Assembly (NCBI GenBank): GCA_034423575.1
Contig: DAOUIF010000084.1
Coordinates: 2,040-66,039, forward strand
Direction: 5' to 3'
DNA: 64,000 nt
Source: Dehalococcoidia bacterium
Lineage (GTDB): Bacteria > Chloroflexota > Dehalococcoidia > Lucifugimonadales > UBA3495
Shown: positions 17,116-38,462 of the stretch, in pieces
Numbering within the stretch: the first letter of the stretch is position 1
How the letters are laid out: every line of letters starts with the position of its first letter
Position numbers and translations under genes: made by a program
Notes under the pieces: model-generated
What the model saw: the letters and a program-made list of their open reading frames with translations, nothing else
What the model was told of the DNA's origin: nothing
The model's database searches: none

Positions 17116-18516
17116 ATGGCTGACATGAAATTCGCCACTCTTTCGGGCGACTACACAGGGATCGGCGGAGCGGTTGTCGAAGGCTTTCGAGGCAGCTTGC
17201 ACGGCGAGTCACTCGCGCGGGGAGAAGACGGCTACGACCGCGCCAGGCAAGTCTGGAACGCCATGGTCGACAAACGACCGGCCCTTGTCGCCCGGTGTAC
17301 CGGAATGGCCGACGTGATCAAGTCGGTCAACTTCGCCAGGGCGAACGGCCTGCTGATTTCGGTACGTGGCGGCGGGCACAACTTCCCCGGCAACAGCGTC
17401 TGCGAAGACGGCCTGATGATCGACCTCTCCCGCATGACTGGCGTCCGGGTTGACCCGGCAGCCAAAAGGGTGCGCGCCCAGGGCGGCGCCAAATGGGGAG
17501 CCTTCGACCACGAAACCCAGGCTTTCGGCCTCGCCGCGCCCGGCGGCACCGATCCCGACACTGGCATCGCCGGCCTGACGCTGGGCGGAGGCATCGGTTG
17601 GCTGTCGGGTAGCTACGGTTTGAGTTGCGACAACCTGATCTCTGCCGACGTGGTGACGGCGGACGGCAACATGCTCACCGTCAGCTCCGACGAGAATCCA
17701 GACCTGTTGTGGGGCCTTCGTGGCGGTGGCGGCAATTTCGGCGTTGTCACCTCACTGGAGTACCGGTTGCATCCGGTCGGCCCAAAGGTTCTGGCGGGTT
17801 ACCTGGTTTACCCCTACGACAAGGCAAGGGAATTGTTCTCCCTGGTCGGCGAGTTTACCGCCGACATGCCCGACGAGATGAACATCATCACCTTCCTGGC
17901 AACCCTTCCTGAGACTGGGGAGAAGGTCTGCAGAATTCTCCTCTGTTACTACGGAGACATCAAAGAGGGAGAGAGGGTCATCCGGCCGCTGCGGGAGTTT
18001 GGCCCGCAGCTGTCGGACGATGTCCGACCCATGACCTACTCCGAGGCCCAGGCGCTGGCGTTGGCCCCGCAAGGCCGGCAAAACTACCTGAAGTCGCATT
18101 TCATGAGTCATGTGAGCGCCGACGCATTGGACATCAATCTCGACTTTTTCGACCGGGTGACCTCCCCGCTGTCCAGCGTCCTGTTCCAATATCTGGGTAA
18201 CGCTACACGGCGAGTGCCAGCCAACGACACGGCGTTTGGACACCGGGGCGCCCTATGCGAATGGGCGACAAACGCGGTCTTCCTCGATCCTGGCGAGTCG
18301 GAAATCCACATCCGGTGGGTCAGGGAATTCGCGTCGGCGTTGTCACCCTTTTCCTCAGGGCCGTACATCAACCAGGTGGGCGCCGAGGCGGAGGAGGGCG
18401 CCGCAGAGATTCAGGCGGCTTTCGGCGACAACTTCGAGAGATTGGCCGCCCTCAAGCAACGGTACGATCCGACGAACATGTTCAGCCACAACCACAATAT
18501 CCGGCCCCGCGTCTAG
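17116..18516 (+). CDS. FAD-binding oxidoreductase (VAO/berberine-bridge family)
   Basis: RGGGHN FAD site, GGGIGW, GGGGNFGVVT and C-terminal LKQRYDPTNMF. Confidence 0.9.
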   Translation: MADMKFATLSGDYTGIGGAVVEGFRGSLHGESLARGEDGYDRARQVWNAMVDKRPALVARCTGMADVIKSVNFARANGLLISVRGGGHNFPGNSVCEDGLMIDLSRMTGVRVDPAAKRVRAQGGAKWGAFDHETQAFGLAAPGGTDPDTGIAGLTLGGGIGWLSGSYGLSCDNLISADVVTADGNMLTVSSDENPDLLWGLRGGGGNFGVVTSLEYRLHPVGPKVLAGYLVYPYDKARELFSLVGEFTADMPDEMNIITFLATLPETGEKVCRILLCYYGDIKEGERVIRPLREFGPQLSDDVRPMTYSEAQALALAPQGRQNYLKSHFMSHVSADALDINLDFFDRVTSPLSSVLFQYLGNATRRVPANDTAFGHRGALCEWATNAVFLDPGESEIHIRWVREFASALSPFSSGPYINQVGAEAEEGAAEIQAAFGDNFERLAALKQRYDPTNMFSHNHNIRPRV

Positions 18517-18554
18517 AGCCCCACACGCACCCAGTTTGCGGCGGGGAAACGTCT

Positions 18555-18656
18555 GAATCAGGATTTACGGGATTTTATGATTTGACAGGATTGAGGGAGC
18601 TTTATCAAAGAACGGTTTCAATCCTGATAATCCCAAAATCTTGAAAATCCTGATTC
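18555..18656. repeat. AT-rich palindromic intergenic repeat (caggatt/aatcctg type)
   Basis: 12-bp terminal inverted repeat gaatcaggattt / aaatcctgattc with internal 8-9-bp ggatt/aatcc subrepeats, between convergent genes. Confidence 0.7.
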
Positions 18657-18698
18657 TGACGATTTACGAGAGTATCCGTGTTGTGTGTCAAGGGCCGT

Positions 18699-20066
18699 TC
18701 AGGTGCGAAGCAAGTCGACCAGGCCAGCGACCGGTTCTCCCTCTTCCAGCAAGTCCAGCCGGGACAACACTTCCGCGGTAGTCTCTTCGGACAACAACTG
18801 TGCCGCGCAGTCCCGGAATTTGTCCCGGATATCTTCCATAGTCACGCCGCGCAGGGCGCCGCTGTCGGCGCGGCGAGCCTCACGTCTGAGCACACTGCCA
18901 TCCTGGAGCTGGACTTCGACTTGGTGGTAGCCTTCGGTCCAGCTGGGCAGCCCTTCATTGCCCGGGATACGGCGCATGTCGATGCGCGGAATCAGCGCCT
19001 GCGCTTCCGGACGCATCACCTGATCGTCGGTGAATGACTGCAGCCCGACCCGACGATCCAGCAAGGCAGCCGCCAGGCAATATTGCATGCTGAACTTCCC
19101 TTCCAGCGATGACAACGGGCGCGAATGGATCAAAGAACGTGGCGGGTCGAAGTCCACCATCACATCGATACGGTCTACCGCCTCCGGATCAATGGGACCC
19201 TGGGACAGCAGGTCGAAAGTGGCATCCAGTGCCAGGTGAGCGCTGCCGCAGCAGGGGTATTTCTTGATCTCGATGCCCGACTCGACCAAGTAGCGTTTGT
19301 TGCCCAGGTTTCGCGCCACCTGCCCGCCGTCGAAACCCTGGCCGCCCGAAAACGCCCGAAGGAACCCAAACCGTCCTTCCAACGCGTCCGTGCTGGCGGT
19401 GAAACCTTCCCGCACCAGTTTGGCGGATGCAACCCCACTTCGGGAGGCGTCACCGGCGTGGAATGGCTTGGTCATGGTGCCGAAGTTCTGTCGCAAACCC
19501 GATGCTTGGGATGCCGCCAGGGAAACGGCCATCGCCGTACGTTCCGTATCCAGGGCCATAATCTTGCTGGCCGCAGCCGCCGCACCCACCGCTCCCAGGG
19601 GGCCGGTTGGATGCCACCCCAGATCATCGTAATATGCTTCGCTCAAGGCCTCGCCTACGGCGCACGCAACCTCAAACCCAGTCATATAGCCCAGCAGCAG
19701 GTCCTTGCCGGAAGCGCCGAGTTCCTCGGCCACCGCGAGGGATGCGGGCAGCAAAACCGCAGTGGGATGGGTCTTGGTAATCTGGGTGATGTCGTCGTAG
19801 TCCAGGGCATGTGCCATGGCGCCGTTGATCAGCGCAGCGTTGGCGGCGGAAGTCCTGAACCCGCGTCCCACGACGGTCGCGGATGGAGAGGCGCTTTCGG
19901 CCGCAACGTACTGGCAAAGAATATCCGACAGGGATTCATGCGACCCGGCCAGCATGCACGCCAGACAGTCCATGATCGCTCCCTTGGCGGCGTCAATCGC
20001 GTCGGGCGGGAAATCCTCGATGTCGGTGGCGGTGATGTACTCGGCGATACGCCCGGTAACGTCCAT
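18699..20066 (-). CDS. MmgE/PrpD family protein
   Basis: HALDYDD, HP, GWHPTG, TKPFHAG, KKYPCC and GKFSMQY motifs. Confidence 0.9.
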   Translation of the reverse strand: MDVTGRIAEYITATDIEDFPPDAIDAAKGAIMDCLACMLAGSHESLSDILCQYVAAESASPSATVVGRGFRTSAANAALINGAMAHALDYDDITQITKTHPTAVLLPASLAVAEELGASGKDLLLGYMTGFEVACAVGEALSEAYYDDLGWHPTGPLGAVGAAAAASKIMALDTERTAMAVSLAASQASGLRQNFGTMTKPFHAGDASRSGVASAKLVREGFTASTDALEGRFGFLRAFSGGQGFDGGQVARNLGNKRYLVESGIEIKKYPCCGSAHLALDATFDLLSQGPIDPEAVDRIDVMVDFDPPRSLIHSRPLSSLEGKFSMQYCLAAALLDRRVGLQSFTDDQVMRPEAQALIPRIDMRRIPGNEGLPSWTEGYHQVEVQLQDGSVLRREARRADSGALRGVTMEDIRDKFRDCAAQLLSEETTAEVLSRLDLLEEGEPVAGLVDLLRT

Positions 20067-23170: not shown

Positions 23171-24076
23171 ATGATGAGATGCGTCGTGACTGGAGGGTGC
23201 GGATTTATCGGCACGCACCTGGTTGACCGGTTGGTGCGCGATGGTCATCAGGTCATAGTGCTGGACGATCTGTCCACCGGCAATCTGGAGCGGCTCAACC
23301 CGTCGGCAAAACCTCTATATTGTTCCGTGACGGATGCGGACACGCTGGCATCCGCAACGGAGGGCGCCGAGGTGGTGTTTCACACGGCAGCCTGGGCTCG
23401 CATAGCTCGTTCGGTTGACGATCCGGTGGGCACACACGAGGTCAACGTTACGGGGACCCTGAACGTGCTGCGGGCGGCGCAGGTCAACGGCGTGCGCCGG
23501 GTGATCAACTCGTCCTCGTCCAGCGTGTACGGCGACCAGCCGACTCACCTGATGTGCGAGGACATGACGCCAAACCCCAAGTCGCCTTACGCTTTGCAAA
23601 AGCTGATGGGCGAGCAATACGCGAACATGTTCGCGGGGCTGTTCGGCATGAGTATCGTGTCTCTGCGCTATTTCAACGTTTATGGGCCCGGGCAGCCGTC
23701 AGAGGGGCAGTATTCGCTGGTGATTCCGCGGTTCCTTCGCATGCGGCGCGAGGGCAGTCCTCTGACCGTTTACGGCGACGGCGAGCAAACCCGCTCCTAC
23801 ACCCATGTGTCGGACATAGTGGAAGCCAACGTACTTGCCGCCAGCTCAGACCTGCCGCCGGCATGTCATGTCGCTTTGAATATAGGCACCGCACAGGAGA
23901 CTTCGGTCAATGACATCGCCGCTGCTATCGGCGGTCCGGTTCAGCACATTGTGCCCAACCCCAGGCGAGAGTTTGAAGAGGCCCGGAAAGCAGCCGACTG
24001 CTCACTGGCCCGGTCGGTCATCGGATGGGAGCCGCGGGTCGCGTTCGCCGACGGCATCAAGGACCTTCTGCAATAG
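23171..24076 (+). CDS. NAD-dependent epimerase/dehydratase (extended SDR, UDP-sugar epimerase-like)
   Basis: VTGGCGFIG, SSSSVYG, YALQK (YxxxK), LRYFNVYGP and GDGEQTRSYTHV. Confidence 0.92.
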   Translation: MMRCVVTGGCGFIGTHLVDRLVRDGHQVIVLDDLSTGNLERLNPSAKPLYCSVTDADTLASATEGAEVVFHTAAWARIARSVDDPVGTHEVNVTGTLNVLRAAQVNGVRRVINSSSSSVYGDQPTHLMCEDMTPNPKSPYALQKLMGEQYANMFAGLFGMSIVSLRYFNVYGPGQPSEGQYSLVIPRFLRMRREGSPLTVYGDGEQTRSYTHVSDIVEANVLAASSDLPPACHVALNIGTAQETSVNDIAAAIGGPVQHIVPNPRREFEEARKAADCSLARSVIGWEPRVAFADGIKDLLQ

Positions 24077-25486
24077 CCGTTGCCCACCGCTGTTGATCTC
24101 GGACCACACAGTCATCGCTGTGGCGACGACGAATGCCGCCCACCACGCGTAGGTAAGCTGCCAGGTTTCGGCGCTCCACAAGGTGTAGAGCGGGAACAGC
24201 CCAGCGGTGGCCTGAAACGGCACGAATGTCATATCGAAGGGATCCACCGCGATGGTGATTTCTCTGATTCGTCCAGCGTGAGCCAGGCCGGCGGTGAACG
24301 CCAGAGTGCATGCGCCCATCAGTGCAACTACCATCTTCATGGCCGATGAGCAGCGACCGATCAGCAAGGTCAGCGGAATGACGAACAGTGGCAGCACGGT
24401 CAGCATCGTGCGACCGGGGAACCACCAGCCCATCATGGTAATCGCGACGAAGGTCGCGATCAGCAGTTGTATGGCGATCAGGATAAGCACCAGGCGAAGC
24501 TCCCACGTGCGAATAATCAACAACGCCAATGCGGGAGCCGCCGCAAGCAACAACGGCGCCCACCGGCCGATCCCGAAGCGGCGGTCCAGGAACAAACCCC
24601 AGATGCGATAGTAGCGCTCCTCGAATGCTAGGTGGCCGCCGAGGATCTGGGCCGTGCCCAAATCCGCATAGACCGAATTGACCCCATAGGGAGTCAGGCC
24701 ACCGAAGACATGCAGGTGGAACCAGATAAACACAGTCGCCGATGGGACGCCCGCCGCTAGAAGGGAGGTCCGTCCTGCCCAATCGGCCCGCAACAGGAAA
24801 TAGGCGGCCACCGGGACCGCCAGCACCGTGTACTTGGAACCCAGCCAGCACAGCGCGGTCAGCGCAACCGCGAGAAACAAGGCGTCGGAGATACCCGCCC
24901 GGTTGCGCCGGGTGGCAATCAGCAGGGCCACGACCAATGCCAGGGCCCCCGGAAACTCGGGGTAAATCTCCGTAGAGTAGACGAACGCCGTCGCCGTCAG
25001 GCCTACTCCCAGGGTCGCCGCCCAGCAGATCACCCGGTGTCCCGTGAGCCGGTCGGCCAGCACGAAAGCCAGCGACATGGTGACCGCAGCCATGAGCATC
25101 AGCTGGACTTGGGTTCCGAGCAGTCCGCCCAGGCCGAACCCAGGGATCACCAAAACTGACAGCCCCGGGTTGTGCGGGCTGAGCAACCGACCATCGGCCG
25201 TGGGAACCGACTGGTACCACAGGCCGTCGGCATGGTCGAAGAACCGCTCGTAGGACTTGGCGTCATATTGGTTTTGCAGGTCCAAATCGCCATCGACCAG
25301 GAGGCTCTGGGTGGTCAGCAGGTAGAATGGCTCGTCCCCGGTGATGGTCGCGCCCCGACTGGCACGAAGGTCAATCGAGAACGCGTACGCAACGGATAGC
25401 AACAGGAAGAGAGCCGCCGCCCACAGCAGCAGCTCCCTTCCGAGAATGATTCGGCGTATGTTGCGTGGAATAGTGCTGGTGATCAC
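24002..25486 (-). CDS. GT-C-fold multi-pass membrane glycosyltransferase-like protein
   Basis: TGDEPFYLLTTQSL acidic first loop, YSTEIYPE, more than 10 hydrophobic helices; GTGA overlap with the upstream gene. Confidence 0.65.
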   Translation of the reverse strand: MITSTIPRNIRRIILGRELLLWAAALFLLLSVAYAFSIDLRASRGATITGDEPFYLLTTQSLLVDGDLDLQNQYDAKSYERFFDHADGLWYQSVPTADGRLLSPHNPGLSVLVIPGFGLGGLLGTQVQLMLMAAVTMSLAFVLADRLTGHRVICWAATLGVGLTATAFVYSTEIYPEFPGALALVVALLIATRRNRAGISDALFLAVALTALCWLGSKYTVLAVPVAAYFLLRADWAGRTSLLAAGVPSATVFIWFHLHVFGGLTPYGVNSVYADLGTAQILGGHLAFEERYYRIWGLFLDRRFGIGRWAPLLLAAAPALALLIIRTWELRLVLILIAIQLLIATFVAITMMGWWFPGRTMLTVLPLFVIPLTLLIGRCSSAMKMVVALMGACTLAFTAGLAHAGRIREITIAVDPFDMTFVPFQATAGLFPLYTLWSAETWQLTYAWWAAFVVATAMTVWSEINSGGQRLLQKVLDAVGERDPRLPSDDRPGQ

Positions 25487-26709
25487 GGCAAAACGCCGGT
25501 CTCCCTGAGAAGCCTGAGAGTGCCCTCGAGGTCGTTGAGGTTCCCCAGGTCCACGTCGGGTGGGTCAAGCGACGCCATCGGCGGCAGATCGCCCTCTGGT
25601 TGGACCCCGGCAGACACTGGGTACTCCTTGATTTCCTGCGCAAAGTAGGTTTGCGCCGGCTCTGTCAGCAGGAACTCCACGAATATCTCGGCTATGTCCT
25701 GGTTTTCAGAGGGTTCCAGGATGCCAACGCCGGCCACCAGCACCAGCGCGCCGGGGTCGCCGTTGCCGATGTAGTGGTTGCGGGCGCCGAACCCCTGCCC
25801 GTGCTCCTCCAGGAACCGCTCGAGATAATAGTGGTTGACGAACCCAACATCCACTTCGCCGGCCGCCGCGGCGGTCACAATGGTCGTGTTGTTGGGATAG
25901 TCAACCGCATCGTTGTCCCTAATTCCCTCCAGCCATTTACGCGCCGCGTCCTCGCCGATGGTGAGGCGCAGGGCCGTAACGAAAGCCTGGAAGGAACCGT
26001 TGCGCGGCGCCCAGCCGACACGTCCCCGCCATTCCGGAGCGGTGAAATCCAGGATGGAAGGCGGCAGGTCAGCCTCCGGGTCAATGGCGTCGGTATTGTA
26101 GATAATGGTGCGCGCCCGGCCCGATGTGCCGATCCAAAGGCCGGCCGGCGAGCGGAACCGCGGGTCCACCTTGTCCAACGTTTTTTGGGGGATTTGGGCA
26201 AGCATGCCCGAATCGGCCAGGATGCCCAGCGAGCCGGGGTCCTGCATGAACACCACGTCGGCCGGAGTATTGCCGCCCTCTTCCAGCAGCGTCGCCGCGG
26301 TGGACGCGCTGCCGGCGTACTTGACCCTGATGTCAATCCCGGTTTGCTCGCCAAAGGCCAGCAGCAGGGGATGGACGAGGGTCTGCGACCGGCCCGAGTA
26401 AACTGTGAGAGTACGGTCGGTGTAGTCGGGCGGCAACGGCCGGGCCGGAACGGCGGTCGGCGCCGGGGCCGGGGCCACGGGCGCCGCCGTCGGCGCGGAG
26501 ACTACCGCGGCCGGCTGGGTGGCCGGTGCGGGAGCCGCAGAGGGCGGTGACTTGGCGCCCCCGGCCGACGGCGAGGCAGTGCTGCCCCCGCCGCAGGCCA
26601 TCAGCGCTATCGCCACCAATAACGTTGCCAGTATCAGCAGAAACTGCGGACCCGCCTGGCGACGAAGATGAGCCATTCTGGTCTTCTCCCTGTGTTTGGG
26701 ATTGATCAT
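25483..26709 (-). CDS. Fe(III) ABC-transporter substrate-binding lipoprotein (FutA/AfuA-like)
   Basis: Lipobox ALMAC, Pro/Ala linker, YSGR, EGGNTPADV, NGSFQAF and VNHYY (paired Tyr ligands). Confidence 0.88.
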   Translation of the reverse strand: MINPKHREKTRMAHLRRQAGPQFLLILATLLVAIALMACGGGSTASPSAGGAKSPPSAAPAPATQPAAVVSAPTAAPVAPAPAPTAVPARPLPPDYTDRTLTVYSGRSQTLVHPLLLAFGEQTGIDIRVKYAGSASTAATLLEEGGNTPADVVFMQDPGSLGILADSGMLAQIPQKTLDKVDPRFRSPAGLWIGTSGRARTIIYNTDAIDPEADLPPSILDFTAPEWRGRVGWAPRNGSFQAFVTALRLTIGEDAARKWLEGIRDNDAVDYPNNTTIVTAAAAGEVDVGFVNHYYLERFLEEHGQGFGARNHYIGNGDPGALVLVAGVGILEPSENQDIAEIFVEFLLTEPAQTYFAQEIKEYPVSAGVQPEGDLPPMASLDPPDVDLGNLNDLEGTLRLLRETGVLP

Positions 26710-29354
26710 TAGTAGCCGGTTATGAGGTCGTCATCCGTCAACAAGAGCGCCGACGCAACCCCGTTCAGGGCGGCCAGCGCCGCGTCGCGCGACGCCTCGG
26801 TGATATCGTCCGCGTCGGCGGTGACGTAGGCCATGATGGTCTCGTCAGCCGACGGATCGGCCGCCGCGACCTCAGGCTGGATCGACTCGTAGAATGCCAG
26901 GGCTTCCACCTGGTGGGTGCCCGGGTCCTTGCCTTCCGCGACGTCCGCCTGTGACACGCCAATGTACCTGACGGTAGCCAGGTAGAAAATGGCGTTAAAG
27001 CGCGAGAACACTTCCTGGGCCGCAGCATTGCACGCGGCGGCGTCGCCGTTTTCGGCGGCCTGACGCACGCGTTCGAAGGCTTCCCTCAGCGGGATGTCGA
27101 TGGTGCCCTCGCGGCCGAAGTTGCCTTCACGGCTGCGGGCCAGCCTGGACAACGAGTAGGGGTAACTCCCATCGTCGCCCGGGAGGCCGACATAGATCCC
27201 CCAGCCCTCGTCGACATCACCCGAGTCCAGGTCGGCACAGCCGCCGATCACATAGTGCTTGGACCAGTGATAGAGGATCCGAAGAATGCCCTTGTTGATG
27301 GCTTGGCGCTTCTGGGCATCGGTCCAATCGGCAGCGGCGCCGCGTCCGCGTACCGTGTTGTTGATGGACGAGTCCAGGAAGGTACCGGACCCATAGTACT
27401 CGGTTGCCAGGGGGAATTCCTCGCCGCGTTCGGGATCACGAGCAAAGCCGCGGAGGGTCTTGCTGCGGACGCCGATGCGGGTGTGATGCCCAACCTCGTA
27501 CAGCAGGAAGATTTCTGCTGCGGGCAAAGGCTTCCCGTCATTGATGACGTTGGTCAGCGCCGCGATCTCCTGGTAATCCGAGGGGATCTTCTGATAATGC
27601 TCTCGGTTGGTTGTGGCGTGGTAGTACCCGTCGGACGGGCTCGGGACGCTCCGGTCCGTCTCGTGAGGGAGATTCACCGGGATGAACACGCTGGAGGAGA
27701 GGTCCAGATCGCCGGTGTAAGGTGACGCCGCGCCGCCGGGCCCGTCGCCAGTGTCGGAGGTGTACTCAGTGATGAGGTCGCTGTCGTCCAGCATGAGCGC
27801 CGAGGCAGTGCCGTTGAGCGCAGCGAGCACGTCGTCACGCGCGGTAATTGAAATCTCGCTGCCCTCGGCGGTCAGGTAATCCATGATCGTCTCGTCGGCA
27901 GCCGGGTCCGCCTTGGCGACATCGGGCTGAATCGACTGGTAGAACGCCAGGGCTTCGACCTGGTGGGTTCCCAGGGCGTCTCGGTCACCGGCCTGTGCAT
28001 CATCCAGCACGCGCCCGACGTACCTGACGGTGGCGAGGTAGAACATGGCGTTGAAACGCGAGTAAACCTCGTTGGTCGCGATTTCCAGAACGTCGGCATC
28101 GCCGTCGTCAGCGGCCTGCCGGGCCCGGTCCATGGCCTCGCGCAACGGGATGTCAATGGTGCCTGTCCGCCCGAAGTTGCCCTCGCGCGCCTGGGCCAAG
28201 GCGGCCAAAGAGTTCGGATACCGCCCGTCAACTTCCTCGCCAACGTAGACAGCCCAGGCTTCGTCAATCAGGCGGGAGCTCATGCGATCCTGGCCGATGA
28301 TCATGTAGAACTTGGCCCAGTGGTACAGAATACGGAGCATGCCCTTGTTGACCGCCTGGCGCTTCTGAGCGTCGGAGTAGTCGGCTGCTTCGCCACGCCC
28401 ACGGACTACATTCTCGATCGGATCGTCAAGGAAAGTATCGGAACCATAGAACTCGGCCGACTCAGGGTAATACCTGGATGGTGTGGAACCGGCCGCGAAG
28501 CTCCGGAGAGTGCGGCTCTGCGGGCCGAGACGTGTGTGCGAACCGGCTTCGTACAGGAGCCAGATCTCAGCCGCAGGGAAGGGCTTGCCCTCCTTGATCA
28601 CGTTGGTCAGCTTGGCTATTTCCTGGTAATCCGTGGATATCTTTGCGTAGATCTCCCGGTTGGTTGTGGCGGTGTAATACCCGTCGGAAGCGGTGGGACC
28701 CTCGGTCTCATAGCTCAGGTTGACAGGTATCCTCAGCCCGCCGGCTTCGACCTGGGCCGTCATCGCGCCGGTGGCAGTGCCCGACGCCGAACCGGTGTGC
28801 GTTCCAGTGCCGGATGCCGAGGCGGTGCCCGTTCCCGTGTGAGTGTGGGTGCCAGTGCCCGTATGAGTGCCAGTGCCGGTGCCGGTTCCGGTCCCTGTCC
28901 CGGTAGCCGTGCCAGTCCCGGTGCCAGTGCCAGTCCCGGTACCCGTGCCCGTTCCAGTACCCGTTCCCCCGGAATCGCCGCCGATCACCTGTATGGTGGG
29001 ACGGTCTTCACCCCGGCGAACTGCCTCATCAGCCGTCGCCTGAGCGTTGGCTGCGGCTTCCCCGGCCGCCGACGCGGCCGCCTGAGCCGTTTCTGCAGCC
29101 GCCTGGGCCTGGTTCGCCCTGGTCTCTGCTGCAGCCGCCCGGGCTTGCGCCTCGGCGGCCTGCCCACTGGCCTGCGCCAGCTGGGCCTGGGCCGCGGCGA
29201 TCGCCGCATCCAGGGCCGACGTGTCGGGCGCGGGTGCGGGCTGTGGCTCCGGCTGACACGCCAGCGCCAGCACAAGCACCATGGATACCGCCAATCCGGC
29301 GATCCAATGCGTGCGTCGAGGGCTTCTTCCCAACTTCGTCATGTGATGAAGCAC
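26709..29354 (-). CDS. Lipoprotein with two tandem FEA1-like (low-iron-inducible) domains
   Basis: Lipobox LALAC, Ala-rich coil and (GT)n linker, then two ~320-aa repeats sharing IPVNL..SDGYY.ATTNRE, LLYE.G.HTR, QKRQA.NKG.LRILYHW, DE.W..YVG, REGNFG and QVEALAFY. Confidence 0.7.
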   Translation of the reverse strand: MLHHMTKLGRSPRRTHWIAGLAVSMVLVLALACQPEPQPAPAPDTSALDAAIAAAQAQLAQASGQAAEAQARAAAAETRANQAQAAAETAQAAASAAGEAAANAQATADEAVRRGEDRPTIQVIGGDSGGTGTGTGTGTGTGTGTGTGTATGTGTGTGTGTGTHTGTGTHTHTGTGTASASGTGTHTGSASGTATGAMTAQVEAGGLRIPVNLSYETEGPTASDGYYTATTNREIYAKISTDYQEIAKLTNVIKEGKPFPAAEIWLLYEAGSHTRLGPQSRTLRSFAAGSTPSRYYPESAEFYGSDTFLDDPIENVVRGRGEAADYSDAQKRQAVNKGMLRILYHWAKFYMIIGQDRMSSRLIDEAWAVYVGEEVDGRYPNSLAALAQAREGNFGRTGTIDIPLREAMDRARQAADDGDADVLEIATNEVYSRFNAMFYLATVRYVGRVLDDAQAGDRDALGTHQVEALAFYQSIQPDVAKADPAADETIMDYLTAEGSEISITARDDVLAALNGTASALMLDDSDLITEYTSDTGDGPGGAASPYTGDLDLSSSVFIPVNLPHETDRSVPSPSDGYYHATTNREHYQKIPSDYQEIAALTNVINDGKPLPAAEIFLLYEVGHHTRIGVRSKTLRGFARDPERGEEFPLATEYYGSGTFLDSSINNTVRGRGAAADWTDAQKRQAINKGILRILYHWSKHYVIGGCADLDSGDVDEGWGIYVGLPGDDGSYPYSLSRLARSREGNFGREGTIDIPLREAFERVRQAAENGDAAACNAAAQEVFSRFNAIFYLATVRYIGVSQADVAEGKDPGTHQVEALAFYESIQPEVAAADPSADETIMAYVTADADDITEASRDAALAALNGVASALLLTDDDLITGY
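28768..28970 (-). repeat. Coding low-complexity Gly-Thr/Thr-His dipeptide repeat
   Basis: Encodes GGTGTGTGTGTGTGTGTGTATGTGTGTGTGTGTHTGTGTHTHTGTGTASASGTGTHTGSASGTAT with degenerate codons. Confidence 0.9.
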
Positions 29355-29387: not shown

Positions 29388-32300
29388 CTACTTGCTCAGC
29401 ATCTCCCGGAGCATCCCGGTGGGGACGCGCCAGAGGTACTTAGGACCGATGAACGAACTGCCCTGGGTGCGCCGCCGGTACGCAACAGGTACTTCCCGCA
29501 TCCGCATACCCTTTTTCAGCAGATCGAGGGTGAGCACCTGGGCGTAGTTGTAATCGTGGATGATTTCGGCGCACTCCAGCGCCCGGCGCGAGAAAGCCCG
29601 GAACCCGGTCTGCCCATCGGTGATACGGCGTCCAGTTGCCAAACTGAGCAGGCCGGTGAACGCGATATTGCCGATGCGTCGGAACACCCGTTGATCCGGG
29701 CGGTTGTCGAGGTAGCGCGATCCCAAAACGTAATCCGCTTCCCCGGACTCGATGGGCGCCAGCAGGTCGGGGATCTGCTCCGGCGGATACTCACCGTCGG
29801 CGTCCACGTACACGGCGGCCCGCGCGTCCAGTTCGTTGGCGGTGGCCAAGCCGGTGCGCAGCGCGGCGCCCAGGCCCCGGTTGCGCTGGTGCGAAACGAC
29901 CACATCAGCACCGTGTTGGTGCGCGATTTCCGCCGTGCCGTCAGTGGATCCGTCGTCCACCACGATCACCTTGAGGTCAGGCCGGTCGTTCCGAGGGATC
30001 CGGGCCAGTGTGGCCGGCAGGTTCTCCGACTCGTTGTAGGCGGGAACGATCACGGCGACGGGTCGGGTCATTTCATCGGCATCGGGTATCCCGAGGACTT
30101 GACCCACCGACTGTGCCGGCGGTTCGACGCCAAGGTAGTAGGCGATGGTGGCGGTCACGTCCATGACCGATTTGGGGTCTTCGACGGACCCCTGCAATTC
30201 AACGCCCTTTCCCCACATGATGCAGGGCACATACCGCTCCGTCGGGCCCATGTGGCCGTGCCCGCCGATGCCGATACCCTGCCCATGATCGGCGGTGATG
30301 ATGACCGTCGCGCCTTCCAGGTAGCCGATGGAATCGCACCACCCCAGGAAGTCCTCGATGTGGCGGTCGCTGTCCTCGATCTTGGCGAGGTACTCGGAGT
30401 TGTAGCTACCCCGGGCGTGCCCGGTCTGGTCAACGCTGAGGAGTTGCAGGACGATCAGGTCGGGGTCGTCCCGTTCAATCACCGCCTTGGCCCTCGCTTT
30501 CAGGGCATCATCGATCTCGTCGTTGTTGGTGACAGCAGTGACGGTTTCAATGTCGGTTTCGCCGAAGGCATCCACGAGGTGGGCGATCCCCACCAGCTTC
30601 CCAGTCAAGCCGCCGGCCCGCAGCGCGTCGAAGATGGTCTCGCACTTGACCCCCAGGCTGGGCACGAAATTGCTGGACATCCCGTGGACGCGCGGCGGCG
30701 CTCCGGTGAACATGGAGCTGAACCCCGTCACGGTGCGTGCCGGGTACACGGTAGACGTATCGACGTAATCGACGCCCTCCTGGCGGAGCTTGTCGATAAA
30801 CGGGGTGTCGGCTTCCTCGAGACGGTCGAACCGGCAGCCGTCGATGACTATGGTAATGAAGCGGCGCGATATTCTCCTGCCGGCCTCGGCCCGCAGACGA
30901 GTCGGCACCAGGGACGGCGCCGGAGGCCAGGTGAAGAACCACTGGTGCAGCAGCAAGGCGGTTATCGCGACACCGAGTGCGAAGCCTTCGACCGCCGCAA
31001 AGGTCCAGACTGTGGGACTTGCCACCAACATCTGGAATGCGAGCGCCAATATAACGAGCTTGGGTATCTGCTCCAGGAAGTTGCCGCTCGTCGGGTCGGG
31101 GTTTTCCAGCACCAGCCGCCAAAAGCGGGTGAAGTTGAACCACGACGTCCCGATGCGCAAGTGGTAATAGATGGTGCCCCACAGAACGATGGTGAAGGTG
31201 AGATACACCCCCAGGATCAGGCCGATTGCGATGAAATCAAAGAACCGGAACGCGGCCAGGAAAATTCCCAAGTACACCCACAGTGCAATCCGCAATTTCA
31301 AAGGGAAATCGAAGCGGTAGAAGATCACCAGCATCGGGGCCAGCGCCAGCAGCGCGAGTCCGGCCCGTAGCCAGTAGCCGCCGTCAGTGAGGTGGGGGAT
31401 GCTCAGCAGCCCGAGAATCCCCAAGGTGAACACCGGCGTGAATGGCTTGCCCTCGTTGAGAACGTTCCAGGCACGGGCGGCGAATATCTCGAACCGGGAG
31501 GCGTGTTTGTCGCCTTCTGCCGAACCTCGGAGAGCCCCCAATCCTTTTAGGGGAATGGCGTCGCGAACCGCCACCAGCGTGAACGCGGCTGCCACCGTGT
31601 ACGAGTACGCGAATTTGAGGCCGTGGGTGAGGACCGCCAGCGCCAACCCTTCCTGCCAGGGCACGCCCATGGCGAACAGCGCGCCGGTCATGCTGGCCTC
31701 ATATACGCCAATGCCGCCGGGCGTCACGTGAAACACCTGGAACAGGATGGTGAACGCCGTGACACCGATCAGGGCGGCCACGGACAGTTCCACTCCCAGC
31801 GCCTCCGCGGCCACCAACAGCACGCCAGCCTCGAGCGCCCAACTGGGGAGAGTCCACAGCGTCGCCCTGAGGATGCGTCCTGCGGAGATCTGGGCCAACT
31901 GCGTTCGCAAACCGTTTATGCTGCCCTGCAGGAATTGGGGCAAGACGCGGTCGAAGGTACGGTAGCGCAGCAATGCCAGGGCTGTCCCCGCGCCGGCCAC
32001 AACGACGACCGGGATCGCCAGGCTCCGCAACCAATCTGCCCGGCTGTCCAGCGAGGTCACCAACGCGCCACACACTCCGGCGATCAGGATCAGGCATCCG
32101 AAGTCCAGGAGACGCGCAACCGCAGTGGTGGCGGCCGCTTCGCTGAGGGGTATGCCGCGGCGGGCCGCCAGCAGTGGCCGGGCGGCCTCGCCCAACTTGA
32201 ACGGGAGCACGTGGTTGGCGAGGAGCGCCGCCTGGAGACAGGTGAACAGCCCGAACATTCCAGACCTAGTGGTCATCAGTTGGCGCCACGCCACCGCGCG

Positions 32301-32558
32301 TAGTGCGAACGCCGCCGTATAGGTGACCACGAGCACCGCGAGCAAATCCGCACGCCGGGCCAGCGTGGACACTGCGACGGCCAATTCGGACCAGTCGGCC
32401 AGCCACCACACCAACACTGCAACGGCGACGGTCAGCACTAATCCGATGAGTACGCGCGTGCCCTTACCTAACCCGAGGAATGCCTGTCCGTAGGAGCGCT
32501 CCGCTTCGGCACGGGTCACTCCAGCTTCGTGGAAGTCCGTTTCTGTCGACCGCCTCAT
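29388..32558 (-). CDS. Fusion: LPG-synthase-type transmembrane (flippase-like) domain + alkaline-phosphatase-superfamily phosphodiesterase + GT2 polyprenol-phosphate glycosyltransferase
   Basis: ANHVLPFKLGE, VARLLD and TPGGIGVYE (flippase-like domain). VIDGCRFD, PARTVTG, DQTGH and TADHG (AlkP). VIVPAYNE, DDGSTDGT, DADG and TDGQTGFRA (DPM1-like GT2). Start taken as ATG 32558. Confidence 0.85.
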   Translation of the reverse strand: MRRSTETDFHEAGVTRAEAERSYGQAFLGLGKGTRVLIGLVLTVAVAVLVWWLADWSELAVAVSTLARRADLLAVLVVTYTAAFALRAVAWRQLMTTRSGMFGLFTCLQAALLANHVLPFKLGEAARPLLAARRGIPLSEAAATTAVARLLDFGCLILIAGVCGALVTSLDSRADWLRSLAIPVVVVAGAGTALALLRYRTFDRVLPQFLQGSINGLRTQLAQISAGRILRATLWTLPSWALEAGVLLVAAEALGVELSVAALIGVTAFTILFQVFHVTPGGIGVYEASMTGALFAMGVPWQEGLALAVLTHGLKFAYSYTVAAAFTLVAVRDAIPLKGLGALRGSAEGDKHASRFEIFAARAWNVLNEGKPFTPVFTLGILGLLSIPHLTDGGYWLRAGLALLALAPMLVIFYRFDFPLKLRIALWVYLGIFLAAFRFFDFIAIGLILGVYLTFTIVLWGTIYYHLRIGTSWFNFTRFWRLVLENPDPTSGNFLEQIPKLVILALAFQMLVASPTVWTFAAVEGFALGVAITALLLHQWFFTWPPAPSLVPTRLRAEAGRRISRRFITIVIDGCRFDRLEEADTPFIDKLRQEGVDYVDTSTVYPARTVTGFSSMFTGAPPRVHGMSSNFVPSLGVKCETIFDALRAGGLTGKLVGIAHLVDAFGETDIETVTAVTNNDEIDDALKARAKAVIERDDPDLIVLQLLSVDQTGHARGSYNSEYLAKIEDSDRHIEDFLGWCDSIGYLEGATVIITADHGQGIGIGGHGHMGPTERYVPCIMWGKGVELQGSVEDPKSVMDVTATIAYYLGVEPPAQSVGQVLGIPDADEMTRPVAVIVPAYNESENLPATLARIPRNDRPDLKVIVVDDGSTDGTAEIAHQHGADVVVSHQRNRGLGAALRTGLATANELDARAAVYVDADGEYPPEQIPDLLAPIESGEADYVLGSRYLDNRPDQRVFRRIGNIAFTGLLSLATGRRITDGQTGFRAFSRRALECAEIIHDYNYAQVLTLDLLKKGMRMREVPVAYRRRTQGSSFIGPKYLWRVPTGMLREMLSK

Positions 32559-32765
32559 CGTTCTCTCTGTTTCCTGACGTGATCCAAGAACGGCAGCCAC
32601 TCTGTACGCATCTATCAAAGATGCGGCCTTGCCGGGAGGAGGGTGCCGACAAGGCCGGTAGCCCGGGAGGGGCGAATACCGGAGGGTCACCGCCGCTATA
32701 GCAACCCACCGATGTATTTCAGATCAGTTAGCCACTAGCCCACTCGTCGTGTACATGGCTCGCAT

Positions 32766-32794: not shown

Positions 32795-33145
32795 TACCGA
32801 CAAATGGTTGGATTTGGCGCTACTCTAGAAGGCGCAATTTGCGGACATAGGGTCCGATGGTCAATCTGAGGTTTGCCTCGAGGAACATATCACGATCAAA
32901 GACACGAAAACCGCGAGTCGATGACGACGCTGAGAGGCGAGGCTATCGCGGCGCGGTGGCTGTAATCACTCGACTGACCGCCCGCCAAGTACCGCGACAG
33001 CAGATGATGAAATGCAATATCCGGAGAAAGCACGATCCGAAACAAGCCAAATCGCTCTGCTGGCTACCTAGTGCCCATTAACCCTGCGTTCCCGTACGGA
33101 ATCACGTGCCTCTTGCGTGGGAGGGCAAATCATACGGTGGGGTGC

Positions 33146-33174
33146 TTGACATACCAAATCAGGATATGCAAAAT
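33146..33174 (+). promoter_or_regulatory. sigma70 promoter of the imelysin operon
   Basis: TTGACA-N17-CAAAAT about 90 bp upstream of the ggagg RBS and ATG 33266. Confidence 0.5.
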
Positions 33175-33265
33175 GCCGGCCGTCGGTCCAATTACGCTGT
33201 TATTGCAGGGCCACAATTTCATTGGCAAAAGGTCAACAAAACGACCGCCTCGGAGGTACATCCAG

Positions 33266-34492
33266 ATGCAGCTGAATTTGCGACGTGCTTGGATAATGGT
33301 CCCGGGTCTGGCGCTATGCCTGGCGTTGGGAGCGGTGGCCTGCGCCAGCGAGCCACCTCCGGCTCCGACAGCTGAGCCAGCTGCCATGATGATGGAAGAG
33401 CCGAAGGTGGACGTCGACGCCCTCAAAGTGGAGGTGGTCGCCCACTATGCCAACGGCGTACATGGTCTCTATTCCCAGAGCCTGGCTTCGGCCAAGGTTA
33501 TGGATGGCGCCATCGACGCGTTCATCGCTGACCCCAATCCGGCCAGCCTCGAAGCAGCCAAGCGCGCCTGGCTGCACGCCCGCGACGATTACGGACCCAC
33601 CGAGGTGTTCCGGTTCTACGGGGGGCCCATTGACAACGAAGAGAATGGCCCTGAAGGTCTGATCAACGCCTGGCCCATGGACGAGTCGTACATCGATTAC
33701 GTGGAAGGCAACCCGACGGCTGGCATCATAAATATGCCGGACGAGTATCCGACCATCGACGCGGAGCTCATCATCTCCCTCAATGAGGAAGGCGGCGAGG
33801 AAAACGTCTCCACGGGCTGGCATGCCATCGAATTTCTGCTCTGGGGGCAGGACCTGAATGAAGGTGGTCCTGGCGCGCGTCCCGTAGAGGACTTCACGAC
33901 CAACGACAACGCCGACCGGCGGGCCCAGTACCTTGCGGTCGCGTCCGACACGCTGATCGGTCACCTGCAGGACCTAGTGGACGCCTGGGCGCCGGGCGGC
34001 AACAACTACCGGGCCGAGTTTCTGGCCAAGCCGGCCGATGACGCCCTGGTCGACATCATCACCGGCGCCGGCGCTCTCAGCAAGGGCGAACTGGCCGGGG
34101 AGCGCATGTTTGTGGCCTACTCGGAGAGGTCCCAGGAAGACGAGCATTCCTGCTTCTCCGACAACACCGTCGCCGACATCGTCGGCAACGCGATCGGCGT
34201 GCGCATGGTGCTGACGGGCGACTACGGCGTGGTTGTCGGGCCCGGCATCATCGACCTGTTCGCCGCCGACAACGAGGCTCTGGCTGATCGTCTGGTCAAC
34301 GAGACCGCGATGGCGGTGACCATGGCCCGCAACATCCCCGATCCTTTCGACCAGCATCTGACCGACACCGCGTCGGACAGCGCGTTCGGCCGGTCCCAGG
34401 TGCTGAGCACAATCGAGGCCCTGGAAAAGCAGGCGGACACCATAGTTGAAGGGGCGGCGGCTTTCGGCTTCACCATCAACACCTCGGTGTAG
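33266..34492 (+). CDS. Imelysin-family iron-regulated lipoprotein (IrpA-like)
   Basis: Lipobox GAVAC, INAWPMDESYIDYV, TGWHAIEFLLWGQD, GELAGER and QEDEHSCFSDNT. Confidence 0.9.
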   Translation: MQLNLRRAWIMVPGLALCLALGAVACASEPPPAPTAEPAAMMMEEPKVDVDALKVEVVAHYANGVHGLYSQSLASAKVMDGAIDAFIADPNPASLEAAKRAWLHARDDYGPTEVFRFYGGPIDNEENGPEGLINAWPMDESYIDYVEGNPTAGIINMPDEYPTIDAELIISLNEEGGEENVSTGWHAIEFLLWGQDLNEGGPGARPVEDFTTNDNADRRAQYLAVASDTLIGHLQDLVDAWAPGGNNYRAEFLAKPADDALVDIITGAGALSKGELAGERMFVAYSERSQEDEHSCFSDNTVADIVGNAIGVRMVLTGDYGVVVGPGIIDLFAADNEALADRLVNETAMAVTMARNIPDPFDQHLTDTASDSAFGRSQVLSTIEALEKQADTIVEGAAAFGFTINTSV

Positions 34493-34507
34493 CTGTCCTT
34501 TATACGC

Positions 34508-35961
<1,454 letters not shown>

Positions 35962-35965
<4 letters not shown>

Positions 35966-37065
35966 CCCACCCACGGATCTTTGTTCTGCTGCCGTTGCTA
36001 GCGCTGGCGCTGCTGTTGCCGGTCGCGTGCTCCAGCGCACCGCCACCTTCCAAGCAAGACGTGATTGTCAGTTTGACCGGCGATCTGATCGTGCCGCGGT
36101 TCCAAACGGTAGCTGCGGAGACCGGCCAGCTTCGGAACGCCCTCCATTCCCTGTGCGCCAATCCCTCCGGAGAAACGCTGGATGCCGCGCGGACCGCCTG
36201 GCGCGAAGCGAGGGCCCCCTGGTTGCGGTCACAGTCGATGTGGTTCGGCCCGGTGATGGACAGACGCTCCCGAATCCTGGTGGACTGGTCGCCTGTCGAC
36301 CCTGAGCGCATCGAAGGCACACTGGCCAAACGCGAGTCCGTTTCGGCTAGCGATATACGGGAGTTTTTCGGCTCGACACAGCGTGGGCTGGGAGCCATCG
36401 AATACGTGATCTTTGCCCCGGACTCGGAAGCCCTGGCGTCTCTGGGTGATCCTGCCGGGATACGTTGCCAATACCTGACCGCATTGGGCGACGTGGTGGC
36501 GGATGAGATATCGGGCGTGTTGGCGGACTGGACGGGCGACGGGTCGGCTGAAGGTGGCTATGCCGGCTATTTCAAGGGCACGGCCGGAGTCGCGCTCGTT
36601 GATCAGCAGGCGGTCGACGAAGTGGTCCGGACCTCGGTGTTCATCACCCGCAGCATCAACGACATGAGGCTGGGCAAGGCGCTGGGCGCGGATGGTGTTG
36701 AACCCGATCCGTCGGCCATCCCCGGCGGCAATGGCCACAACGCCGTCACCGACCTGCGCAACCAGGTATTGGGGATGCAGGACACGTACCTGGGCGCCGG
36801 CGTCGAGGAATCTTTGGGCATTAGCGCACTGGTGCAGGGTGTCTCAAAGGAGGCCGACGAGCGGATGCGTGGGCATTTCACCGCAGCGCTGGAGTCGATC
36901 GACGGGTTGCAGGAGCCCTTGCAAGCGACGGTCGCATCCGACCCGGTACCGGCTCGCCTCGCGCACCAGCGGATCCAGGAACTCCAGCGCACGCTCAACA
37001 CCGAGGTGGTCAGCCTCCTGGGCGTTACCGTCGGGTTCGCCGACACCGACGGCGACGGCGGTTAG
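35962..37065 (+). CDS. Imelysin-family lipoprotein (second, His-less type)
   Basis: Lipobox PVAC, WFGPV and QRGLGAIEYVIF; coupled to the di-heme gene. Confidence 0.8.
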
Positions 37066-38429
37066 GGACTCTCCGAGTTCTTTTTGCCGCTGACTGCCGC
37101 ATCGTCCGGCTCGTAGGGCAACACCCAACGCTTGGGCGCGATGGCGGACCGAACGGACGCCAGGTCCACGTCGGGATCGATCAGCCGAGCATTCGGTCGT
37201 CCGTTGAAGGCGACGAACGCGTCGGCGTTCACAGTCACGTGCGTAGAACCGTCTTCCGCTAAATCCCTGGCGATCATACGGGCGGTCTGGTGGATCATGT
37301 CCGGTTGGAAAGACATTCTTTCCACCTGAAGCGGGGTCAAATATTGGTCCGGTTCGATGAGCCAGGACTGGCCGGTTTCGACGTCCCGCACGCGGTATTG
37401 CACAAAGCCAACCTTTTCTGAAAGCATCACTCGCCACGCGAAGCGGTAACCTTCCTCGTTCCACCGGACATTCCCGGGATAGGCGAAGTGGCGCAGGGGC
37501 AACGCCAACTGGACCACGGCGAACATCGCCAACGCAATCAGGGCCGCCCGGGCGCGCCATGGTTGGTTGGCGGGCTGTGGGGGCTCGCCGCGAGGGCGTC
37601 GGTCGGGCATGCGTATCAGCCGCACCAGCCGTCGCGGCCAACCGGGGTCGAAAAATATCAGGGACAGCCCGATCATCAACCAGGGGAATACGCCAAGCTG
37701 CGGGAACAGAATCCAGGTCGCTAAATGGAAAGCTACGAGAGCGGCGTAGGCGAATGGCCGGGTGCGTCTCCACAACAGCGAGGGAACGATCGCCAGGTCG
37801 AACAGGGCGCCGCCCCAACTCATGACATATGCTGCCCAGGTTTCCTGAATCAGCCGGCCGATTACCGGCAAGTCGCCGTGCTGGTAGAGCCAGATGCGCA
37901 TGGGCAGCGCGTGGAACAGCCAGTCGGGGTTGATCTTGGCCAGGCCCGCGAACAAGTACACGACGGCGATCTGCCCGCGCAGCGTCCAGACAACCCAGAG
38001 CGGTGATGAACCCCGCCCAAAGGGCAGGACGGCCAGCAGCAAACTCACCAGGCTCATCAAGTAGTGATGATTGAGGTAGGTGGCGCTGTCGATCAGTTCT
38101 ACATAGGTGAACCCAACGCAGAACAGGGCAGCACACAGCCGTGGACGGAAACCCGCCGCGATGCCCACGCTCAACGCCCCTAGCGCGATGAAGTGGGCGT
38201 GCATCCCCCAGCCGGGCCACGGTCTTACCCAACCGAATCCCAGGTAGGTGAAATGGTGGTCCGGCTCCACGTAAAGCGGGCCGATCCATCCGTGAGCGAA
38301 AAAGCGGGCGACGACCAGGACGCCGAGCAGACCGAAGATGGCCCGGAAGGTTATGATCGATGCGCTATCAACCTGCTCGCTCGCGTTATATCTGGCGATT
38401 TTTAGCCAGACAGCCGGATTGATGGTCAT
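37062..38429 (-). CDS. HTTM-domain / vitamin K-dependent gamma-carboxylase-like membrane protein
   Basis: FRAIFG, YLNHHYL, YLFAGLAKINPDWL, GYRFAWRVML and MSFQPDMI. Confidence 0.85.
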   Translation of the reverse strand: MTINPAVWLKIARYNASEQVDSASIITFRAIFGLLGVLVVARFFAHGWIGPLYVEPDHHFTYLGFGWVRPWPGWGMHAHFIALGALSVGIAAGFRPRLCAALFCVGFTYVELIDSATYLNHHYLMSLVSLLLAVLPFGRGSSPLWVVWTLRGQIAVVYLFAGLAKINPDWLFHALPMRIWLYQHGDLPVIGRLIQETWAAYVMSWGGALFDLAIVPSLLWRRTRPFAYAALVAFHLATWILFPQLGVFPWLMIGLSLIFFDPGWPRRLVRLIRMPDRRPRGEPPQPANQPWRARAALIALAMFAVVQLALPLRHFAYPGNVRWNEEGYRFAWRVMLSEKVGFVQYRVRDVETGQSWLIEPDQYLTPLQVERMSFQPDMIHQTARMIARDLAEDGSTHVTVNADAFVAFNGRPNARLIDPDVDLASVRSAIAPKRWVLPYEPDDAAVSGKKNSESP

Positions 38430-38462
38430 GGCCAGCCCGATCCGGAGTGCGAATGTATCGGT

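Follow-up and report, generated by a model that had tools for sequence, protein, structure and literature searches.

Architecture of the lipoprotein

We analyzed a stretch of 64,000 nucleotides from a Dehalococcoidia bacterium (Chloroflexota; contig DAOUIF010000084.1), hereafter the window, and we focused on a minus-strand gene at 26709..29354. This gene encodes a lipoprotein of 881 amino acids with two tandem domains of the Fea1 superfamily. The superfamily includes the phytotransferrins (ISIP2a/FEA1), which control iron uptake by marine phytoplankton. The gene was taken from the list of open reading frames; it has a Shine-Dalgarno sequence (AGGAGG) 10 nt upstream of its GTG start codon, and the NCBIfam model FEA1_rel_lipo matches its product in two stretches. 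All of the parts of the protein described below are, accordingly, encoded on the minus strand.

The protein begins with a lipoprotein signal peptide that ends in a lipobox (amino acids 1–33, ...VLALAC33; 29256..29354). As read from the sequence (MLHHMTKLGRSPRRTHWIAGLAVSMVLVLALAC), it has a positively charged n-region, then a hydrophobic core, and then the lipobox cysteine, C33. Homologs have canonical L-[AI]-A-C lipoboxes at the matching position. A first-pass annotation of this DNA had called the protein a bacterial lipoprotein, and this holds. Further along is an Ala/Gln-rich spacer, which is probably helical (amino acids 45–113; 29016..29222). This spacer is a variable insertion that is present in only some of the homologs (similar segments occur in P0028, P0097, and P0117), and in the window protein it separates the lipobox from a conserved GEDRPxVxVI motif (amino acids 114–125, RGEDRPTIQVIG; 28980..29015). 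We recognized the motif by comparing homologs: in most bacterial Fea1 lipoproteins, including the very distant P0101, P0106, P0111, P0144, and P0153, it lies directly after the lipobox. The motif is followed by a low-complexity (Gly-Thr)n tether (amino acids 126–200; 28755..28979), which contains 30 Thr and 27 Gly among its 75 residues, with scattered His (THTGTGTHTHTG), and which has a predicted local distance difference test score (pLDDT) of under 50 in a model of both domains. Imperfect, hexanucleotide-based tandem repeats of 6, 18, and 30 nt at 28775–28967 encode the tether. Across homologs, its length and composition differ widely (Ser/Gly, Thr/Gly, or Met/Thr).

The rest of the protein consists of two Fea1-like domains, or lobes, joined by a linker of 24 residues. 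We delimited lobe 1 (amino acids 206–531; 27762..28739) by self-alignment and from the conserved sites described below, and lobe 2 (amino acids 556–881; 26712..27689) by self-alignment and from an AlphaFold2 model. The linker (amino acids 532–555, TSDTGDGPGGAASPYTGDLDLSSS; 27690..27761) was placed using the model of both lobes together with the homologs, and DDTGDGPSGAPSPYTG is conserved in the linker of other two-domain homologs. The protein ends where lobe 2 ends (...DDLITGY*), with no C-terminal anchor.

The internal duplication had been noticed in the first-pass annotation, with limits that are within 2 nt of ours. When one half was compared with the other (BLASTP), the repeats were 63% identical over 328 amino acids with five gapped positions (E = 8e-141), and at the nucleotide level they are 68.6% identical over 950 nt. 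This similarity is far beyond chance. Both repeats contain the two motifs that had been picked out as reminiscent of algal proteins: DEAWAVYVG (28239–28265) and REGNFG (28170–28187) in lobe 1, and DEGWGIYVG (27186–27212) and REGNFG (27114–27131) in lobe 2. The whole protein has just three cysteines, namely C33 in the lipobox and, as had also been noted, a pair that is confined to the second repeat (C706, 27237–27239, and C775, 27030–27032); lobe 1 has none. Among 60 close domain sequences, nine have both members of the pair, one has a single member, and 50 have neither, a tally that includes a separate single-domain subclade. This both-or-neither pattern fits a disulfide between C706 and C775.

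Membership in the Fea1 superfamily and predicted fold

The first-pass annotation had proposed a resemblance to FEA1/ISIP2a-type proteins and had called for an HMM check of the family assignment. The direct check against Pfam was negative: with hmmscan, the whole protein had no match to PF07692 (Fea1; gathering threshold of 25 bits) at E ≤ 1, and neither lobe had one at E ≤ 10. In contrast, the NCBIfam model NF038033 (FEA1_rel_lipo) matches at E = 1.8e-51 with 175.1 bits, and it aligns end to end with each lobe, but this score is under the curated cut-off of 250 bits. NF038033 is a bacterial, single-domain equivalog model of 406 positions, and no function is attached to it. The window protein resembles the members of that family in having a lipoprotein signal, a Ser/Gly/Thr linker, and a Fea1-like domain; it differs in having two domains, and the 175 bits are the score of both lobes together. 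Ten relatives of the window protein score 91–192 bits. As all of these proteins are below the cut-off, they point to a separate subfamily in the Dehalococcoidia.

Homology at the level of the superfamily is supported by NF038033, by transitivity, and by the comparison of profiles. With lobe 2 as the query, a word-indexed search yielded 96 relatives, almost all of them metagenome proteins; a few have precomputed matches to PF07692. We built a domain-only alignment of the family (31 sequences, hereafter A2), and four of the 31 members match PF07692 (best E = 7.5e-24). The A2 profile was then compared with 1.84 billion representative proteins and matched only 282 of them at E ≤ 1e-3. Nine out of 10 distant matches that we sampled carry PF07692, and the PF07692-positive proteins include multidomain proteins of eukaryotic type with Ephrin-receptor-like or Somatomedin-B domains. 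(We judged bacterial versus eukaryotic origin from lipoboxes and domain content.) Finally, HHalign aligned A2 to five PF07692-positive, lipobox-free sequences of algal type over 289 columns, with 99.7% probability and E = 3.8e-26. The proposed relationship to FEA1 and ISIP2a is thus sound for the superfamily, and we consider the window protein to be a divergent bacterial member that lies, by the thresholds of Pfam and NCBIfam, outside both of their families.

To see which positions are conserved, we used a superfamily alignment of 63 domains (positions are numbered as in lobe 2). D160 is found in 100% of the domains, D38 in 98%, R127 in 95%, and Y64 in 92%; R77 and G168 are each found in 90%. 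Next come W163 (87%), F191 and E262 (84% each), E161, Y166, and R187 (81% each), and Y242 (76%). Both lobes keep all of these positions except for Arg-to-Lys replacements at R77 (K632, in lobe 2) and at R127 (K331 and K682), and each of the replacements has Arg at the next position. Because the residues of the DExWxxYxG and RxxNFG motifs are among the best conserved in this alignment, we take the two motifs to be the true core of the superfamily.

Some members of the family have additional or overlapping domains. Pfam's DUF4856 weakly matches the C-terminal half of the Fea1 domain in P0264 and in three of the 31 members of A2 (E = 6e-05 and 1.7e-05), and the two families may be remotely related. 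P0045 (locus L062), which has a single lobe, has about 130 additional amino acids (residues ~95–215) between the tether and the lobe, which make up a further N-terminal domain; by eye this domain looks cupredoxin-like, as in EfeO, and it has no match in Pfam. The eukaryote-like protein P0218 (1,165 amino acids, from a Logan contig) combines two Fea1 domains with a PBP_like_2 domain (PstS-type) and Somatomedin-B. We considered whether the PBP_like_2 fusion was a “Rosetta stone” for the coupling to FbpA that is described below, and we rejected this, as the domain has no similarity to the FbpA of the window.

AlphaFold2, run on A2, predicts that lobe 2 is all-alpha, with 17 helices, a mean pLDDT of 96, and a predicted template modeling score (pTM) of 0.94. 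When we compared this model with the PDB using Foldseek, nothing was found at E ≤ 1e-3, and no transferrin or periplasmic-binding-protein fold was among the 50 matches listed. Searches of the PDB by sequence (phmmer) and by profile gave only low-complexity or chance matches. These empty searches agree with the published statement that FEA1 has no homolog in the PDB (PMC8098128). A model of both lobes (amino acids 200–881), based on a shallow alignment of 20 sequences, has a pLDDT of 77 and a pTM of 0.50; residues 335–383 of the construct, between the lobes, have a pLDDT of under 50, and from this shallow alignment no confident interface between the lobes was predicted. Given the low pTM and the disordered linker, the lobes look like beads on a string that fold independently.

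The first-pass annotation had described the protein as a bilobed, transferrin-like iron scavenger. The iron role is supported by the gene's context, as we discuss below, but the likeness in structure is not: the helices-only model and the lack of any such match among the listed PDB hits argue against a Venus-flytrap fold of the transferrin/FbpA type, and the two-lobe model shows no confident packing of the lobes against each other. “Transferrin-like” would be at most a functional analogy for the window protein, and, as the domain is predicted to be all-alpha, the “transferrin” in the name of the wider family would refer to a function and not to a fold. A eukaryotic transferrin is also a tandem duplication with two lobes, and both it and FbpA (the “bacterial transferrin”) presumably share with the window protein the high-affinity capture of Fe(III), but their fold is unrelated to the predicted Fea1 domain.

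The best Foldseek match, although not significant, was to an imelysin (3n8u_A; E = 0.085, TM-score 0.19, probability 0.38). EfeO and the imelysins (Peptidase_M75) resemble the window protein in being all-alpha and extracytoplasmic and in belonging to iron-uptake loci, and two imelysin genes are close by: a plus-strand cluster of imelysin (33071–34492), di-haem oxidoreductase (DHOR; 34508–35965), and a second imelysin (35962–37065) lies 3.7 kb away, divergent from the Fea1 gene, and it recurs in many related loci. Also, DUF4856 matches the Fea1 region of some members. The protein might then be an all-alpha partner, like EfeO or imelysin, that binds or oxidizes iron in redox-coupled uptake together with the products of this cluster, instead of simply capturing Fe(III). 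We consider this to be very unlikely: besides the low TM-score and probability, an HHalign comparison of the family with the two imelysins of the window gave 0.1% probability (with a profile of just those two sequences). Overall, a relationship to imelysin is not supported by either structural or profile similarity.

An operon with FbpA

The Fea1 gene is the first of three overlapping genes. Its TAA stop codon shares one nucleotide with the ATG of the next gene (25483..26709, minus strand), which encodes a substrate-binding lipoprotein of the FbpA/HitA type (Pfam SBP_bac_8/6/1/11). In the PDB, its product matches 7w3w_A (E = 6e-76), FbpA from Thermus (3wae and 4elo, ~1e-58), and FbpA from Haemophilus and Neisseria (~1e-49), and it retains the tandem Tyr-Tyr. 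From these similarities, we regard it as a genuine ferric-binding protein, FbpA, and it is this neighbor that is the locus's true transferrin-fold protein, rather than the Fea1 protein. The FbpA gene's TGA in turn overlaps the GTG start (GTGA) of a gene for a polytopic membrane protein of 494 amino acids (24002..25486, minus strand) with roughly 10–12 hydrophobic segments. This protein has no match in Pfam, NCBIfam, or the PDB; it has more than 785 homologs, all of them unannotated.

A survey with one genome per species yielded 73 loci. All of these are in metagenome-assembled genomes of Chloroflexota/Dehalococcoidia, and, by the names of the records and isolates, they include a bin from the SAR202 cluster and apparently sponge-associated bins. 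FbpA follows Fea1 in about 65 of the 73. The order glycosyltransferase fusion, Fea1, FbpA, membrane protein, and reversed epimerase (the outer genes are described below) is kept nearly throughout, often with imelysin and DHOR genes nearby. At L065, where Fea1 is ~54% identical to the window protein, the complete series Fea1-FbpA-FbpB (528 amino acids)-FbpC-membrane protein is present, and L067 and L073 (~50% identity) keep Fea1-FbpA. The 494-amino-acid membrane protein is linked to Fea1 and FbpA at L065, L077 (61% identity), and L078 (32% identity). L077 has, in the same slot of the operon (6001–8166), a two-lobe and PF07692-positive Fea1 that is just 30%–37% identical to the window's lobes, although FbpA (68%), the membrane protein, and the glycosyltransferase (74%) are much more similar; either this Fea1 evolves much faster than its neighbors or a paralog has replaced it. 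At L078, Fea1 (P0265, 6001–7335) is fused to Pfam's Mtb12_C and sits between FbpA-FbpB-membrane protein and a Peripla_BP_2/FecCD/ABC_tran system. The exceptions are P0081 (L002), which stands alone, P0250, which adjoins an SBP_bac_10 gene and genes with no evident role in iron metabolism, and P0146, whose neighbors are described below.

Two full lobes are present at 47 of 70 loci and one lobe is present at 23, which makes the tandem arrangement the usual one in this clade. In a rough neighbor-joining tree of the lobes (without support values), most lobe 1 sequences fall in one clade and most lobe 2 sequences in another, which suggests a single old duplication. In a few cases (L028, L039, L023, L060, and L063), the lobes pair within the protein, and P0101 and P0106, both distant, have each undergone a separate duplication.

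On the other side of Fea1, a gene on the same strand (29388..32690) ends 33 nt upstream and is syntenic in nearly all of the related loci. According to Pfam, it encodes a fusion (1,100 amino acids) of LPG_synthase_TM, a phosphodiesterase of the alkaline phosphatase superfamily, and a family 2 glycosyltransferase (GT2). There is no terminator-like site between it and the genes of the Fea1 operon, and our scans for promoters and terminators were uninformative, with no more hits than expected from shuffled sequence. A plus-strand gene for an NAD-dependent sugar epimerase (23171–24076) flanks the Fea1-FbpA pair. The module of GT2 fusion and epimerase recurs at the distant loci L077 and L078; a possible role for it is to glycosylate the Thr/Ser/Pro-rich tethers in the Fea1 and FbpA lipoproteins.

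These neighbors raise the question of whether the Fea1 protein is instead an envelope- or glycan-associated lipoprotein, with a structural role or as the carrier or the substrate in a glycosylation pathway, and with an incidental link to iron. Three observations fit this: the GT2 fusion, the polytopic membrane protein, and the sugar-nucleotide epimerase flank Fea1 in nearly all related loci; the long Thr/Gly/Ser tether is typical of glycosylated linkers; and the distant P0146 (L076) is found among genes for heparinase, GT1, sulfotransferase, and epimerase, which is a purely polysaccharide context. However, modification of the linkers of both lipoproteins would explain the glycosylation genes equally well. 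Furthermore, the Fea1 gene is translationally coupled to FbpA, it is part of a full Fea1-FbpABC operon at L065 and is located between two iron ABC systems at L078, and its product is homologous to iron-assimilation proteins. We therefore view a primary role in the envelope as quite improbable.

The imelysin-DHOR-imelysin cluster is part of a larger iron island in the window (33071–39227), which also includes a minus-strand gene for an HTTM/vitamin-K-carboxylase-like membrane protein (37062–38429) and a minus-strand gene for a DtxR/IdeR-type repressor with a C-terminal FeoA domain (38463–39227). Genes of this island are also found with Fea1 in many of the related loci, as well as in the SAR202 bin (L071).

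A candidate Fe(III) antenna

We think that the protein is most likely a tethered extracellular antenna that captures Fe(III) and feeds it to FbpA. In this proposal, the protein would be anchored by its lipid, and the spacer of about 170 residues would keep the two lobes at a distance from the membrane. As the Chloroflexota are generally considered to be monoderm, the spacer would project the lobes outward. Each lobe would bind Fe(III), probably at a site formed by the conserved Asp, Tyr, and Glu, with the Arg/Lys positions possibly holding an anion. The lobes would capture labile ferric iron and raise its local concentration; the iron would then pass to the co-translated FbpA lipoprotein, which would deliver it to an FbpB/FbpC ATP-binding cassette (ABC) importer encoded elsewhere in the genome. 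Fe(III) is the most likely ligand given the homology to ISIP2a and to Ot-Fea1, which was purified in an iron-loaded state; a proposed role of ISIP2a and FEA1 is to enrich iron at the surface of the cell (PMC4855317, PMC7676907, PMC8098128). We infer the hand-off to FbpA, as well as any role for carbonate; the translational coupling and the conserved adjacency of the genes argue for transfer to FbpA and for import by FbpBC.

As iron binding is deduced by homology, the importer's ligand could be something else (Zn, Mn, an iron chelate, or an oxyanion), or just one lobe might bind it while the other, such as lobe 2 with its putative disulfide, docks to FbpA or to the envelope. Expression of Ot-Fea1 responds to zinc as well as to iron (PMC4855317). 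Identity between the lobes has fallen to 63%, the covarying cysteine pair is in lobe 2 only, and the separate clades of most first and second lobes suggest a long-standing subfunctionalization. Nevertheless, the partner in the operon belongs to the FbpA family of ferric-binding proteins, both lobes retain the conserved acidic, Tyr, and Arg positions, and single-domain forms fill the same slot of the operon at 23 loci. We consider a different ligand or a division of labor between the lobes to be unlikely.

Several other results weigh against an antenna for FbpA. The window protein falls short of the thresholds of both curated families, with no match at all to PF07692. A search with the L065 proteins did not find FbpB or FbpC in the 64-kb window, and there is no match to the DtxR/IdeR box consensus, with up to three mismatches, in the 64 kb. 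The synteny is drawn largely from fairly close relatives. Glycosyltransferase and epimerase genes accompany the Fea1 cluster nearly throughout and P0146 has an entirely different context, so the logic of the operon is not exclusively about iron.

Compared to the algal proteins (FEA1 and FEA2 from Chlamydomonas, Ot-Fea1 from Ostreococcus, and ISIP2a from diatoms), the window protein has the same homologous domain of about 320 amino acids (289 aligned columns), with a common core of DExWxxYxG, RxxxF, and the Asp/Tyr/Arg positions, and both are extracytoplasmic, tethered to the membrane, and found in the context of iron acquisition. Tandem multiplication is also seen in the algae, where the Fea1 domain has been multiplied repeatedly and independently, to 2 to 10 copies (PMC4855317). 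The attachment differs: the window protein has an N-terminal lipid anchor, while the algal proteins have a C-terminal transmembrane helix or an endocytosis motif. For example, ISIP2a has a C-terminal membrane anchor with an endocytosis motif and is taken up by endocytosis (PMC7972479). As a bacterial protein, the window protein would have no endocytic release step. Also unlike the algal proteins, it has FbpA of an ABC importer as a partner and a long (Gly-Thr)n tether, and it is below Pfam's detection. FbpABC systems encode FbpA, FbpB, and FbpC; all three are present at L065, FbpA and FbpB at L078, and FbpA only in the window.

Bacterial FEA1-related lipoproteins were already known, as they have a curated NCBIfam model, and so were multi-domain Fea1 proteins in algae. 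What is new is the distinct Dehalococcoidia subfamily, which is below the thresholds of Pfam and NCBIfam and in which the two-lobe form is prevalent; the operon of Fea1 with FbpA and an uncharacterized membrane protein; and the high-confidence all-alpha model. In the collection of papers that we searched, there was none on bacterial Fea1, on DUF4856, or on the iron site of FEA1. As NCBI's curators had flagged the family and the clade commonly has the two-domain form, we see the protein as a useful lead, not as something surprising. For apo-FEA1, crystallization and phasing have been reported, and the mechanism of its function was stated to be unknown (PMC8098128). A bacterial homolog would be a tractable model for studying the ligand of Fea1, the need for carbonate, and the release of iron in the absence of endocytosis. 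The window protein is well suited to this, as the confidence of its domain model is very high and FbpA is an obvious acceptor downstream of it. The locus also points to a dedicated route for scavenging inorganic Fe(III) in the Dehalococcoidia.

A broader scenario, which is speculative and which we rate as doubtful, is that the Fea1-FbpA operon of monoderm Chloroflexota represents the ancestral context of the phytotransferrin domain. An all-alpha, non-transferrin receptor for Fe(III) would have evolved in bacteria as the outer antenna of FbpA, and algae would have acquired it later, coupling it anew to endocytosis. Under this scenario, the repeated duplications in bacteria and algae would reflect a selective advantage of multivalent capture, and the obligatory parts of the system would also include the 494-amino-acid membrane protein and the glycosyltransferase module.

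Elsewhere in the window, at 17116–20066, there are unrelated metabolic genes for a FAD-binding/BBE oxidase (17116–18516, plus strand) and a protein of the MmgE/PrpD family (18699–20066, minus strand). The G+C content is about 0.55 over the first 15 kb of the window and about 0.63–0.65 thereafter.

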